Part shown: piece after piece, positions 13,796 to 17,758 of the stretch
Numbering within the stretch: position 1 is the first letter of the stretch
Layout: each line of letters starts with the position of its first letter
DNA from: Escherichia phage Ec_O157kw
Strand: one strand, 5' to 3'
Sequence record: PV857777.1
DNA: 64,000 nucleotides
Position numbers and translations under genes: made by a program
The notes under the pieces: generated by a model
Databases searched by the model: none
Told to the model about the DNA's origin: nothing
What the model saw: the letters and a program-made list of their open reading frames with translations, nothing else

Positions 13796-14686
13796 ATGTC
13801 AGTCGTAATTAATAATGTCAATGCAGTAATTAAATCTTTAGTTAATAAAAAAATGATGAATGAATGGACTGTATTTCGTCGTGGAGAGCCAGATAAATTT
13901 TTTCATAGATTTAACACAACTTTGGATTTGAATGTTATTGACAGAGATGTTCATGCTGAAATTTTAGATAAATTTAAAGTTGATATTGGGTTTGGATTAG
14001 AAAAACATTTACAGCGAACAAACGGGTCTGGAATGAGTTTATCTAATCGCATTATGAAAGCCCTTAATAAAATTGGAGCGTTGTCTCGTATTAATGCGAG
14101 TGAAATCCTTCGCAATTATAATAAAGGATATGACCTTTATGGTCGACTAATGCCGAAATTATCATTTGACCAAATGATCACAGATTTGTGGGAAAATCAA
14201 CGACGATTATTAGCATTAGGCGCTCGATTAGCTAAAGGTCTAGATAAACAAATGATTTTTAAGACCAATAATACAGAAGACCTTAAATGCTTTAAATTCA
14301 GTATTCGCGGAGATGATTATTACATCAGAGCTCACTCTACAGATTATGTTAATATGGGGCATCATCTCTGTTTGGCTTTTGAAGTTTTAAAAGAAGCTGG
14401 AACATTAGAATATTCATCTGGTGCAAAATGCCCTATTGGTTCAAGTTGTATTTTAATTTATCGCCCGGATGAATCCAGTTCAACTACATTGCCTACAAAA
14501 CCTGTACCAGTTCGTAGTAATGAAAAACATTCTGAACAAATTGATTATTTTAATAAGCAAATTGAAGAACTGAATATTTCTATTCAACAATATGATGATG
14601 AAATTTTCAGACTATCTGGATTGAGTAGTAAAGCTAAATCTGAGCGTGAAAAGTTAATTAAAATTGTTGATTTACTTAAATCTTAA
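13796..14686 (+). CDS. Tandem-paralog family member 1 (variable N-domain + Pro-rich linker + C-terminal coiled coil)
   Basis: 296 aa from ATG 13796 (SD GAGGAAAAT); shares LALGARLAKGLD-type motif and terminal amphipathic helix with the next three genes. Confidence 0.6.
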   Translation: MSVVINNVNAVIKSLVNKKMMNEWTVFRRGEPDKFFHRFNTTLDLNVIDRDVHAEILDKFKVDIGFGLEKHLQRTNGSGMSLSNRIMKALNKIGALSRINASEILRNYNKGYDLYGRLMPKLSFDQMITDLWENQRRLLALGARLAKGLDKQMIFKTNNTEDLKCFKFSIRGDDYYIRAHSTDYVNMGHHLCLAFEVLKEAGTLEYSSGAKCPIGSSCILIYRPDESSSTTLPTKPVPVRSNEKHSEQIDYFNKQIEELNISIQQYDDEIFRLSGLSSKAKSEREKLIKIVDLLKS

Positions 14687-14694
14687 GGAACACC

Positions 14695-15720
14695 ATGAAA
14701 ACTCGTTCTCAAATTGAAGATATGGTTCGTAATGCCAGTTATACTCGTGATGTTATGACATTTTTGTGTGAAAATAATTTAGACCCTGATAAAGTTAATC
14801 GTGTTATTCACTTTAAGTATATGAATAGCAGTGAATGGTTACGTCATTTTAGTAAAGCGGGATATATTACACAAATGACTGCTCGTGAGCAGCTCACCGA
14901 TTTCTGTAAAACTATTGATTATAAAAATCCTTTATTTGTTCAAGGCGTTGGTCAAAGTAAGGTCGATTTATCATCTGGATTTTTCAATCCAAATCATTAT
15001 CGTATTGAATGGAGATTTATTGCTCTGTTCCGTAGACAATTAAAGCAAATTTTGTCTACTGCTAGTCGATTAAAAGGCTCTGATATTAACTTAAAGAATC
15101 TGAAATTTGATGGTTATACTCTTCAGATGGAAGTAAGACCGTTAAAAGAAAATAATAGAACTGCACGAATTAGCTTTAAACCTAATACAAAAAATTCTCT
15201 TTCAATTTGTGAATGTCTTAAATCACAGTTGACAGAAGCATTTAAGTATATGGATGTTGTTGCTGCTGTTCAATCTAAGATTTTACCTCGTTTTGAGCGA
15301 TTTAAGTTGGATACAACATCATATGAACTTGATATGATCGTTTCATTTAAATACGATTTTTTGAGAAAGGACGAAGTCCCGCAAGAGAAAAAGCAGGAAG
15401 TACAAGATAACTTAAATTTAAATTTATCCAATTACTTATCAAACGATCCTAAATTTTGGATGTATAGCTCAAGCAATATAGATGCATGTAAACTTAATAA
15501 AGTGAGTTTTCTTCCTACTGAAAATTCAAATTTTAAACCTGTTGAAAAATGGCACGCTGACGCGATTGAGAAGTCTATCAAGGCAGTAGATGATGAACTC
15601 GTTAAAGCAACTAATGAAGTGCTAGAAGCTGAAAAGGTGTTAGAACAAGCTCAGTCAAGGGTTCAAAATCTGACAAAGCAACGTTCTAAACTGAACAATG
15701 CACTAAATGCACTGAACTAG
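14695..15720 (+). CDS. Tandem-paralog family member 2
   Basis: 341 aa; motif KQILSTASRLKGSD; C-terminal coiled coil EKSIKAVDDELVKATNEVLEAEKVLEQAQSRVQNLTKQ. Confidence 0.6.
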   Translation: MKTRSQIEDMVRNASYTRDVMTFLCENNLDPDKVNRVIHFKYMNSSEWLRHFSKAGYITQMTAREQLTDFCKTIDYKNPLFVQGVGQSKVDLSSGFFNPNHYRIEWRFIALFRRQLKQILSTASRLKGSDINLKNLKFDGYTLQMEVRPLKENNRTARISFKPNTKNSLSICECLKSQLTEAFKYMDVVAAVQSKILPRFERFKLDTTSYELDMIVSFKYDFLRKDEVPQEKKQEVQDNLNLNLSNYLSNDPKFWMYSSSNIDACKLNKVSFLPTENSNFKPVEKWHADAIEKSIKAVDDELVKATNEVLEAEKVLEQAQSRVQNLTKQRSKLNNALNALN

Positions 15721-15749
15721 TTTACTTTGCCACAAGGATGTGGTATAAT
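15720..15749 (+). promoter_or_regulatory. T4 early-type promoter (31-bp sequence repeated at 60715)
   Basis: GTTTACTTTGCCACAAGGATGTGGTATAATG; -35 overlaps the TAG stop of the upstream gene. Confidence 0.7.
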
Positions 15750-15777
15750 GTTCTTACTTTCTACTGAGGAGATTAAT

Positions 15778-16779
15778 ATGACTCGTAACGAATATATCAA
15801 ATCATTCAATAGCGTTATTGATGATAAAGCTATACCGATGTTTGGTCAAAATATCGTTCTTTCTATTATCAATCAATGGCTCAATAGTGTTGATGCAAGT
15901 ATTGTTTCTTCTACTAAATTTATTCATGAAATTCGTAAAATTTCTAGCCGTGTAGATAAAGATGTTATCAAGAAAACCTTTAAAGAGTCTCGTCTTCTTT
16001 CATATTTGGTTAATCGGGATATTCTTGGTAATTTTGGGAAAGAAATTAAACGAACCAAAGATGTAGTAGGATATAATTGGTTCGGTGATGTTAATTCTTA
16101 TCATCTTAATAATAAAGAAGACCCTGAGAATATTTTTACTCGTCGTTGGATTAGTAATTTCAGACTTTTCAAAGGACAAATTCTAAAATCAGCTTCTAAA
16201 TTATGTTATGGCGATTATCGTCAAATTCATCCTTTGGCTTCTGATATGATTATCGTAAAAGAATATGAGCTTGATAAAAATAAAGTAGCTATTTTTGTGA
16301 ATTATGGATTTTTTACACCAAACGCTAACCAAAAGAATATTAATAAATTTTTCTCAATTGCTAGCACTATAACTCGTCAGTTAGAGACTGCATTACTTTG
16401 TATGGAAACAGTAGAAAATATTCATACATATCCTTTTAAGAATATATGCGGATGGGAAGGATATAAAATTGTAATTAGTCTTCGTGAAGTGAAATGTGCT
16501 TATTCACCTACTGATAAAGAAATTTATCAACAAAAATGTGAGGAAATTGTGAATACTCCTAAAGAAGAAACTACCCTTGAGGAACTAATGGATAATCTTG
16601 ACGATTCACCTGAACCGGTAGAAATTCGTCCAGAAGTTATTGCACTAGAAAAAGCTTATAAAGAAGTTCTAGAAATTTCTAATAAAGCGCAGAAAGAATA
16701 TGAGCAGGCTAAAAAGATTTGGGAAGAATCCGTTAATCGTCTTGATCGTCTTGAACAAGCTTTACAGTTAATTAAGTAA
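15778..16779 (+). CDS. Tandem-paralog family member 3
   Basis: 333 aa from ATG 15778 (SD GAGGAG); motif GQILKSASKLCYGD; C-terminal coiled coil. Confidence 0.6.
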   Translation: MTRNEYIKSFNSVIDDKAIPMFGQNIVLSIINQWLNSVDASIVSSTKFIHEIRKISSRVDKDVIKKTFKESRLLSYLVNRDILGNFGKEIKRTKDVVGYNWFGDVNSYHLNNKEDPENIFTRRWISNFRLFKGQILKSASKLCYGDYRQIHPLASDMIIVKEYELDKNKVAIFVNYGFFTPNANQKNINKFFSIASTITRQLETALLCMETVENIHTYPFKNICGWEGYKIVISLREVKCAYSPTDKEIYQQKCEEIVNTPKEETTLEELMDNLDDSPEPVEIRPEVIALEKAYKEVLEISNKAQKEYEQAKKIWEESVNRLDRLEQALQLIK

Positions 16780-16831
16780 TTTAAAGCCAAGGATGGCTCG
16801 GAGTATAAATCATTAACCAAGTGAGAAGAAC

Positions 16832-17758
16832 ATGAAAACTCGTAAACATTATATTGATTATTTTGACAGTCTTATTACTAAACATCGTAATTATCAGATA
16901 GGACATAGAGCAGTAATCAATAATATTCTTCGTGATTTTTTAGACTATATTGGATGGGAAAACCATATTTGTAAAGATACACAAAATGCGTATTCACATT
17001 CTCTTGGTTCTTTGCTAGAGTGGTTCAAACGTTCTCGATTACTATCTTCTGTGATAGCTGTTAATAATGTTAAAAAATTTATGTATCCAAGCTACATTGA
17101 GACTAATGTATCAAATGCTAATGTTGTTACATTTAATATTATTAATGACGTGAAAAGAACTTATTTAGAAGAATGGTTTTCTAAAAATAGTAAAGAAAAA
17201 TTTGCTAGTGAGTTTTCACATGAATTTAATAATAATGTGAATATGCTTTTTAAGCATTCTCGTAGACTGTTTTGTCATGGCGATGACCGTACTATTAATG
17301 TAAATGTAAAAGATTGGGTTACGGCTAAATTTATTCCATCATCACAGAATGGACCATTTGAATTGTCAATTATTGTTTGTGCTCCGCATGAAATATATAA
17401 AAATCTTCCATATATGAAACCGCGTGAAGCTAATAAACATAATAAAACGATTCGTTCTTTGACTTATAATCTTCATACGTTATTGTCTAAAATGGACGTA
17501 GTTGAATCCTTTGATGATAATACGAATTATGGTCTTTCACTGTTTGAAACTAAAGTTGTTATTAAGTTAAAGGACACTAGTAAATTTAAACCTACGCCAA
17601 AGCCTAATCATGGGAATGATACTATGAAAGAAGAACGCGAATATCTCAGTGCTCGTTTGATTGAAGTTGAAAAACAGATTGAAGAGCATACTAAAGTTCT
17701 TAAGGCTTTAACCGCCAAAGCAAATGGTTTACGTGATGCTATTGAGGTACTGAAATGA
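16832..17758 (+). CDS. Tandem-paralog family member 4
   Basis: 308 aa; N-terminus KHYIDYFDSLI resembles member 3 (NEYIKSFNSVI); motif HSRRLFCHGDD; C-terminal coiled coil. Confidence 0.6.
   Translation: MKTRKHYIDYFDSLITKHRNYQIGHRAVINNILRDFLDYIGWENHICKDTQNAYSHSLGSLLEWFKRSRLLSSVIAVNNVKKFMYPSYIETNVSNANVVTFNIINDVKRTYLEEWFSKNSKEKFASEFSHEFNNNVNMLFKHSRRLFCHGDDRTINVNVKDWVTAKFIPSSQNGPFELSIIVCAPHEIYKNLPYMKPREANKHNKTIRSLTYNLHTLLSKMDVVESFDDNTNYGLSLFETKVVIKLKDTSKFKPTPKPNHGNDTMKEEREYLSARLIEVEKQIEEHTKVLKALTAKANGLRDAIEVLK

Follow-up and report, generated by a model that had tools for sequence, protein, structure and literature searches.

Four consecutive genes of similar size and apparently common layout raise two questions: whether they descend from one ancestral gene, and what a phage would do with such a set. 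They lie in the window, by which we mean the whole 64-kb stretch of Escherichia phage Ec_O157kw DNA analysed here (PV857777.1), and had been singled out by a sequence-only reading. A check of the open reading frames (ORFs) agrees with the positions given there (13796..14686, 14695..15720, 15778..16779 and 16832..17758, all on the + strand), and the ATG starts chosen earlier, including that at 13796, are consistent with homologue lengths. The segment belongs to a Tequatrovirus (T4-like) genome: bases 13000-18600 match 631 phage records by megablast, the best being Shigella phage ESh18 with 97.5% identity over 5.6 kb. The names nrdC.6, nrdC.5, nrdC.4 and nrdC.3 are taken by synteny from phage PP01, whose annotated genes have the same order and orientation. 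T4 orthology of the block is borne out by tblastn against T4 records (93.7-97.3% identity) and by the shared gene order between nrdC.7 and nrdC.2/nrdC.1/nrdC. Upstream are nrdC.10, nrdC.9, nrdC.8 and nrdC.7; downstream, nrdC.2 and nrdC.1 precede the true glutaredoxin gene nrdC (18282-18545). All genes from nrdC.10 to nrdC lie on the + strand, in the direction of T4 early transcription. The locus is thus the nrdC.6-nrdC.5-nrdC.4-nrdC.3 block within the early nrdC.11-to-gene-49 accessory region of a T4-like phage, a region that is emerging as an anti-defence island.

Each of the four proteins already has a place in family libraries. NrdC.6 (296 amino acids, aa), the most divergent member of the array, matches PHROG 2257 (E 2.7e-151) and, through its homologues, Pfam PF26899 (Phage_T4_Y05B), with precomputed matches in 105 of 105 homologue clusters. 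NrdC.5 (341 aa) matches PHROG 2351 (E 3.8e-168) and Pfam DUF7235 (PF23882; E 4.1e-116), covering the whole model (positions 1-307 of 307) at 388.2 bits where the gathering cut-off is 30; the window copy is 93.7% identical to T4 nrdC.5 by tblastn. NrdC.4 (333 aa) and NrdC.3 (308 aa) both match PHROG 1435 (E 1.9e-169 and 3.3e-100) and are assigned through precomputed matches of homologues to PF26897 (Phage_T4_Y04OP), so that Pfam and PHROGs group these two already. The PF26897 assignment of NrdC.4 comes via homologues, all of which, at 33-97% identity, have a precomputed match, as does an nrdC.5::nrdC.3 chimera. A GAGGAG ribosome-binding site lies 5 nt upstream of the nrdC.4 ATG (15778).

Common descent is expected to leave sequence similarity among the four proteins, if only at the level of profiles. 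By plain BLASTP, the only link is between NrdC.4 and NrdC.3 (E 5.6e-5, 23% identity over 274 residues), and a hidden Markov model of NrdC.4 matches NrdC.3 at E 4.9e-15. Profiles were built from homologues gathered in three database searches, from IMG/VR loci and from phage records, and were compared with hhalign. A noise floor of about 0.007 was taken from 36 control comparisons (range E 0.007-0.78) involving an unrelated neighbour protein, T4 gp13, gp14 and gp15, fibritin, GCN4 and tropomyosin. NrdC.4 aligns with NrdC.3 at E 8.9e-14 over 225 columns, NrdC.5 with NrdC.4 at E 1.8e-7 over 255 columns from head to tail, and NrdC.5 with NrdC.3 at E 2.8e-5 over 233 columns. In addition, the profiles of NrdC.4 and NrdC.5 are bridged by a Klebsiella-phage protein, P0235, which matches them at E 1.1e-9 and 1.2e-7, respectively. 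Judged by these alignments, NrdC.5, NrdC.4 and NrdC.3 are homologous.

The position of NrdC.6 is less direct. Its BLASTP comparisons with the other three give E-values of at least 0.066, its hhalign comparisons range from E 0.0019 to 0.14 (0.0019 against NrdC.5 and 0.025 against NrdC.4, colinear in both cases), and it was not retrieved by an exhaustive search of 1.84 billion representative proteins with the joint NrdC.3/.4/.5 profile. It forms a separate family in both Pfam and PHROGs and is without the N-terminal M-x-T-R motif. These features would fit a different history, in which nrdC.6 is unrelated and the array consists of three paralogues next to a neighbour that has converged on the same protein design. 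However, intermediates connect NrdC.6 to the others. A 335-aa protein of Enterobacter phage IME523 is syntenic, its gene lying directly 5' of a gene positioned like nrdC.2. Along its entire length this protein aligns with P0235 (E 8e-17), and it matches NrdC.6 in two colinear stretches, the head motif (E 1.6e-4) and the tail (E 6e-6). The NrdC.6 model also matches this protein by Foldseek (E 9.4e-7), along with similar 300-335-aa proteins of other T4-like phages, and Yersinia phage fHe-Yen9-01 gp111 is matched by both the NrdC.6 and the NrdC.5 models. The Mosigvirus NrdC.6 orthologue aligns with the NrdC.4 profile (E 2.9e-4, 148 columns), and the two have a linker motif in common (LQGLIDELNEEVIPV vs LEELMDNLDDSPEPV). 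Tegunavirus gp94, a relative that the HMMER family models fail to detect, matches both the NrdC.6 profile (E 1.3e-3) and an NrdC.3 orthologue (E 6e-6); a tblastn search with gp94 finds it in only three Tegunavirus phages, so no deeper profile of it is possible. Finally, NrdC.6 and NrdC.5 agree in the order and boundaries of their secondary-structure elements: in the profile alignment of the two, the helix boundaries of two independent models coincide. We therefore consider convergence improbable and NrdC.6 very likely a distant member of the same superfamily, connected to it through intermediates and predicted structure. When secondary structure from AlphaFold2 was supplied to hhalign, that scoring term stayed at 0 with no change in the E-values, and Foldseek template-modelling (TM) scores (0.2-0.47) were not used as evidence, their low values being due to the arbitrary orientation of head and tail in the models.

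The tandem paralogy claimed by the sequence-only reading thus holds by profile alignment for nrdC.5, nrdC.4 and nrdC.3, and for nrdC.6 through bridges and structure. The four proteins would accordingly have arisen by ancient duplications within a single superfamily confined to T4-like phages, as the alignments show for three of them and as is very likely for the fourth. At the DNA level, the only trace of duplication is a 19-nt stretch common to the start regions of nrdC.5 (14688-14706) and nrdC.3 (16825-16843), GAA(C/G)A(C/A)CATGAAAACTCGT, with 89% identity, which codes for the conserved N-terminus M-K-T-R; otherwise, no meaningful DNA repeat was found between the paralogues, and no further family member was found elsewhere in the window.

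A common origin should also be visible in protein architecture. Each protein is made up of an alpha/beta head of about 220-250 aa, a disordered linker rich in proline and charged residues, and a C-terminal amphipathic heptad helix of 46-58 aa, which agrees with the design described earlier. AlphaFold2 models of NrdC.6 (mean predicted local distance difference test score, pLDDT, 72.9) and NrdC.5 (pLDDT 70.6) agree in the order of their elements: N-terminal helices are followed by two helical hairpins and then by two strand pairs with a helix between them, after which come the linker (pLDDT <50) and a long C-terminal helix. The recurring motif noticed earlier corresponds to helix 2 of the second hairpin together with the G-D turn that follows it, and is colinear across members in all profile alignments. 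Likewise, the N-terminal block common to NrdC.4 and NrdC.3 is borne out, with T2, R3, Y6, I7 and F10 invariant in 17 sequences. Across the superfamily, the invariant residues are T3, R4, F70, M186, L333 and A336, which are hydrophobic or structural except for T3 and R4.

Coiled coils are expected to show hydrophobic periodicity at heptad positions a and d within a long helix. For each tail, the hydrophobic fraction at a/d positions in the best register was compared with 2000 shuffles. The fraction is 0.75 for NrdC.6 (aa 241-296; 14516..14683, + strand) against 0.48 in shuffled sequences (p = 0.0005), 0.88 against 0.54 for NrdC.5 (aa 284-341; 15544..15717, + strand; none of the 2000 shuffles reached this value, p <0.0005), 0.86 against 0.59 for NrdC.4 (aa 285-333; 16630..16776, + strand; p = 0.0015), and 0.85 against 0.58 for NrdC.3 (aa 263-308; 17618..17755, + strand; p = 0.001). 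All four tails are therefore periodic at p <= 0.0015. The NrdC.5 tail is modelled as a single continuous helix (residues 285-340, 56 residues, pLDDT 81-92), and that of NrdC.6 as two helices (residues 246-273 and 279-295, 28 and 17 residues) broken at L-S-G. In a tail-against-tail comparison, NrdC.5 and NrdC.3 align at E 4.5e-6, whereas generic coiled-coil controls give E-values of at least 0.007. The heptad periodicity suggests that the tails drive oligomerisation.

The earlier description of this tail as constant needs correction. The paralogue tails are only about 20-30% identical and have in common the heptads and a terminal L..A(L/I)..LK motif; it is inside each orthologue group that the tail is conserved above the head (66% vs 39% among divergent NrdC.6 orthologues, 63% vs 44% for NrdC.4, and 79% vs 60% for NrdC.3). 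An NrdC.4-like protein (P0121) has a near-identical tail despite 33% overall identity. The heads, by BLASTP, are >75% different between paralogues. A similar C-terminal helix had also been proposed for the ORF at 12798-13325 (nrdC.8). Its heptad signal is weaker (p = 0.0135) and it has no profile similarity to any of the four (hhalign E 0.13-0.44); nrdC.8 was rejected as a fifth member, the sole support for it being a weak Foldseek match to a 175-aa KPV15 protein.

What such proteins do is best addressed through nrdC.5, for which a function has been published. As reported by Srikant, Guegler and Laub (eLife 2022, PMC9391042), T4 nrdC.5 supplied in trans restores plaquing on Dsr1-carrying cells, deletion of dsr1 in ECOR17 restores infection, and cloned dsr1 protects MG1655 from the mutant phage. 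Dsr1 is a SIR2-type NADase of a sirtuin defence, and a 2026 preprint reports that its sensor domain recognises the late-made phage major capsid protein. The window ORF at 14695-15720 is the orthologue of this gene by its position between nrdC.6 and nrdC.4, its identity and its DUF7235 domain. As far as its available passages go, the publication offers genetic rescue only, with no mechanism, structure or domain analysis, and does not discuss paralogy with nrdC.3, nrdC.4 or nrdC.6. The earlier statement that no known function could be assigned therefore no longer holds for the second member, because it is a named T4 gene with a published function, and all four are already in Pfam and PHROG families.

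Accessory genes directed against host immunity are expected to be dispensable, early and variable, and the array shows these traits: non-essentiality, an early-type promoter site with co-orientation with early genes, and variation in copy number and alleles. According to the HIDEN-SEQ supplement, nrdC.3, nrdC.4, nrdC.5 and nrdC.6 are all non-essential in T4 on E. coli K-12, and the same study identifies the neighbouring T4 nrdC.1 as a Septu inhibitor. A few genes downstream, T6 gp49.2 inhibits OLD. The suggestion that the array is a diversified effector family, for example for anti-defence, is thus partly supported, by T4 nrdC.5 overcoming Dsr1, by the non-essentiality of all four genes and by the counter-defence function of the flanking nrdC.1 and 49.2; for nrdC.6, nrdC.4 and nrdC.3 an anti-defence role would follow from paralogy. 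In the window, nrdC.1 lies at 18038-18280 and 49.1 and pin at 18914-19490, surroundings that look like an anti-defence island. There is no tblastn match in the window to PP01 gp49.2, so this phage appears to be without the OLD inhibitor.

We favour a reading, with a probability of about 0.6, in which the paralogues of the array act as oligomers that inhibit proteins of host immunity by binding to them; one target, Dsr1, is known. The proteins would be produced early in infection, and the tail of each would assemble a homo-oligomer, probably through a parallel coiled coil; given the low identity between paralogue tails, the assemblies would stay separate. The heads would neutralise a particular protein of host immunity by binding to it, with no catalysis involved, and multivalency would provide avidity for oligomeric targets. 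For NrdC.5, the target would be Dsr1, as indicated by genetics on the T4 orthologue, with direct binding being our extrapolation. Because the Dsr1 sensor recognises a late-made protein, an early inhibitor would have to block Dsr1 ahead of its trigger, before capsid protein appears. NrdC.6, NrdC.4 and NrdC.3 are predicted to be equivalent inhibitors of other defence proteins. If so, the duplication and loss of these genes, the divergence of their heads and the replacement of alleles would follow the hosts' immune repertoire.

A precedent for such a mode of action is DSAD1, the anti-DSR2 protein of SPbeta-like Bacillus phages, which is reported to inactivate a sirtuin NADase by direct binding in competition with the activating structural protein. 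The two cases differ in the defence (DSR2 vs Dsr1) and in the trigger (tail tube vs major capsid protein). DSAD1 is described neither as one of a paralogue array nor as having a coiled-coil tail, and is likened to NrdC.5 by mode of action only. At the level of the locus, the T-even dmd-tifA-adfA anti-toxin-antitoxin island and the IPI/IPII/IPIII locus likewise consist of early or injected, non-essential, variable genes, each acting against a specific defence and lost or amplified under selection (PMC9391042). However, the genes at those loci are not paralogues of one another, whereas the nrdC array is one scaffold duplicated and diversified.

Several points weigh against the inhibitor reading. 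The functional data concern nrdC.5 only, are genetic, and come from the T4 allele rather than the window allele; in the literature found, no paper shows NrdC.5-Dsr1 binding, and the retrieved passages of the HIDEN-SEQ text and supplements contain no finding for nrdC.3, nrdC.4 or nrdC.6. Oligomerisation of the tails is deduced solely from their heptads. The direct profile matches of NrdC.6 (E 0.0019-0.04) are close to the control noise floor, and its link therefore rests on bridging sequences and moderate-confidence models (pLDDT about 71-73). Within Tequatrovirus, nrdC.6 evolves no faster than its neighbours (ratio of nonsynonymous to synonymous substitution rates, dN/dS, 0.10), and since overall dN/dS is <1 throughout the array, there is no direct evidence of positive selection.

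In a rival reading, nrdC.5 would be the only counter-defence gene, with nrdC.6, nrdC.4 and nrdC.3 using the scaffold for other early jobs, such as host takeover (by binding host transcription, replication or proteolysis factors) or competition with other phages and prophages. T4 early genes include many host-takeover factors. No paper was found on the mechanism of NrdC.5 or on any function of nrdC.3, nrdC.4 or nrdC.6; non-essentiality of these three on K-12 fits any accessory role; and heads that differ by >75% must have different targets. Against this stand the anti-defence role of the only member tested, the anti-defence roles of flanking genes, and the variable presence and allele replacement of the array, traits that characterise proteins adapted to a varying host immunity more than those directed at conserved host machinery. 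We regard this division of labour as unlikely, though a serious alternative.

A further question is how the heads would act. Phages also answer SIR2 defences enzymatically, as by the NAD+ reconstitution pathways NARP1/2/3, and the array proteins might similarly be catalytic, modifying or degrading a defence protein or restoring NAD+. However, no enzyme or known domain was found in Pfam, NCBIfam, PADLOC or PDB sequence searches (a PDB search with both profiles gave nothing useful), the structural neighbours are non-enzymes, and the superfamily-invariant residues are few and, with the two exceptions given above, hydrophobic or structural. Catalysis is the reading we find least credible. A defence-system identity was also tried and rejected, the sole PADLOC match being a weak coiled-coil match to BrxC.

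Heads could instead work as decoys. The Foldseek matches in BFVD include proteins for tail termination and tail completion (E about 0.01-0.04); according to a preprint, some immune sensors recognise structural proteins, the tail terminator among them; and DSAD1 is reported to compete with tail tube protein on DSR2. The heads might accordingly mimic a virion neck or tail-terminator-type protein, or be copies of one put to a new use, and fill the sensors of structure-recognising immune proteins. In an extended form of this idea, all four would be oligomeric decoys with a head derived from or mimicking a neck or terminator protein, each plugging the sensor of a different structure-sensing receptor (Dsr1/Avs-type), and together forming an early pre-emptive panel. 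Yet generic alpha/beta folds score similarly, there is no sequence similarity to T4 gp15, gp14 or gp13 (hhalign E at least 0.014), Dsr1 is reported to sense the major capsid protein rather than the terminator, and the head model is of moderate confidence. We read the terminator matches as probable generic alpha/beta sandwich similarity and the decoy lead as one of low probability: the four-receptor panel and head mimicry by itself both seem very unlikely. As a matter of family identity, a sequence relationship to tail terminators (lambda gpU, P74-26, T5 p142 and others) was rejected, with T4 gp15 giving hhalign E 0.06-0.68 against the four family profiles and the genes lying in the early nrdC region, not the late structural module; the nrdC proteins also differ from terminators in their additional helical hairpins at the N-terminus, their coiled-coil tail and the long, disordered linker that precedes it.

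The distribution of the superfamily is both narrow and uneven. The exhaustive search with the NrdC.3/.4/.5 profile returned only 18 clusters, and all those that were traced come from T4-like phages or phage-like contigs. By tblastn among 50,697 phage records, 741 match nrdC.6, 524 nrdC.5, 553 nrdC.4 and 653 nrdC.3. The comparison across T4-like genomes that had been proposed earlier reveals 0 to 4 copies, as well as alleles, fusions and frameshifts. Tequatrovirus has four copies; Mosigvirus has three (nrdC.6-, nrdC.5- and nrdC.3-type), as have Dhakavirus and Gaprivervirus (nrdC.6, a very divergent nrdC.5, and nrdC.4); Tegunavirus has two very divergent copies; Jiaodavirus, Kanagawavirus and Winklervirus have one; Lazarusvirus has one candidate, a 343-aa protein with weak profile matches (E about 0.009); and the Aeromonas phage examined has none.

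Within Tequatrovirus, variation includes allele replacement and rearrangement. The nrdC.3 records split by identity into three clearly distinct allele classes, with 137 records at >=90%, 345 at 60-80% and 169 at <60%; the window carries the minority T4/T2-type allele. For most Tequatroviruses, megablast coverage ends at base 3526 of the 3963-base array, so that the allele break falls within the latter half of nrdC.3. Phage PD112 (locus L021) has a three-copy array with one copy gone. In metagenomic phages, an out-of-register nrdC.5::nrdC.3 fusion (P0056, 4 contigs) deletes nrdC.4, and in ACG-C40 (NC_019399, 47512-47923) only a 137-aa remnant of nrdC.5(1-68) and nrdC.3(240-308) is left. Frameshifts affect nrdC.5 in PP01 and nrdC.4 in one IMG/VR phage. 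Fusion and frameshift sites inside the array lie at 5570-6900 in locus L019, 1931-3261 in L020, 4695-5721 in L001 and 7971-9003 in L006. The nrdC.6 product of Shigella phage Sf25 (P0122, 378 aa) carries an in-frame 82-aa tandem duplication (residues 177-259) that takes in the latter half of the head together with the linker and the first part of the tail.

Sequence divergence was measured as pairwise dN/dS within Tequatrovirus, giving 0.10 for nrdC.6, 0.17 for nrdC.5, 0.22 for nrdC.4 and 0.28 for nrdC.3, compared with 0.04-0.10 for most neighbours. nrdC.5, nrdC.4 and nrdC.3 therefore evolve faster than most neighbours, without overall positive selection. A separate case is an 803-nt ENA metagenome contig (L016), in which a 173-aa ORF (P0238) joins an unrelated 120-aa N-terminal part to an exact nrdC.5 tail, followed by the start of nrdC.4. 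Only bases 480-803 of this contig match the window (92.6%). Either the head was replaced, or a segment inserted, in nature, or the ORF is a chimera created during assembly.

Early production requires early transcription, and a promoter inside the array near 15720 had been predicted. A putative early-type sigma-70 promoter (gTTTACT-17-TGgTATAAT; 10/12 plus TG in a consensus scan) indeed lies at 15721..15749 on the + strand, between nrdC.5 and nrdC.4, and the annotators of phage fPS-65 marked a 'predicted early promoter' at the homologous place. From this promoter-like site and the position of the genes, the proteins are probably made early in infection. No Rfam family was found in the region.

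With its genes, family models and one function already known, the array is not a new kind of system. Pfam and PHROGs hold its members as three separate families (PF26897, PF26899 and PF23882; PHROGs 1435, 2257 and 2351), which are here joined by profiles, bridges and structure. Beyond those sources, a single superfamily built on one three-part plan appears to unite DUF7235, Phage_T4_Y04OP and probably Phage_T4_Y05B. Its distribution appears extremely restricted and its composition dynamic, with 0 to 4 copies, several allele classes and fusions, and nrdC.3, nrdC.4 and nrdC.6 appear as predicted counter-defence candidates. T4 is the reference phage, yet function is missing for about half its genes. 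The common scaffold makes three T4 orphan genes testable counter-defence candidates and the mechanism of a Dsr1 antagonist testable as well, with a suggested domain map in which the head confers specificity and the tail assembly. The natural series of diverged heads and alleles could map the defences that shape the host range of T4-like phages, and is relevant to the choice of therapeutic phages.

The analysis also flags a widespread mis-annotation. Many GenBank and RefSeq records call nrdC.1 to nrdC.11 'thioredoxin', and the T6 RefSeq record calls nrdC.5 'tail sheath stabilizer and completion protein'. Neither label is backed by Pfam, NCBIfam, the models or hhalign. A thioredoxin or glutaredoxin identity of the array genes was rejected, there being no Pfam or NCBIfam match and the models not being thioredoxin-like. 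Both labels look like annotation errors passed between records, that of 'thioredoxin' having been carried over from the neighbouring true nrdC.

Among neighbouring genes, a conserved protein of about 256-263 aa (motif DDRPHAPFDGYLWE) is encoded 5' of the single nrdC.3/.4/.5-like gene in Jiaodavirus, Kanagawavirus and Winklervirus. Genes of this roughly 260-aa family lie at 11347-12135 in locus L023, 11000-11770 in L024, 10669-11442 in L026 and 2898-3686 in L018, and as gp100 in L017; Tegunavirus gp100 belongs to the same family and does not adjoin gp94 or gp111. The protein (Mineola, IME523, Virsaitis27, L018, Yen9 gp100) was rejected as a relative of the array, as it is without a coiled-coil tail, gives hhalign E 0.3-0.5 and has no counterpart in the window array. 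Downstream of the array, the zinc-ribbon gene nrdC.2 (17755-18051) is likewise highly divergent between Tequatroviruses, with a dN of 0.159 and a dN/dS of 0.25, has a length of 73-129 aa across loci and may be another fast-evolving accessory gene. Upstream, the longest ORF of nrdC.10 (11197-12333) encodes 378 aa; in the PHROG family, as in many annotations, the protein begins at residue 57 and is 322 aa long. Its product has a P-loop/AAA-like core with weak Pfam matches and occurs in 1311 phage records, including Vibrio, Acinetobacter and jumbo phages, a distribution far wider than that of the array.

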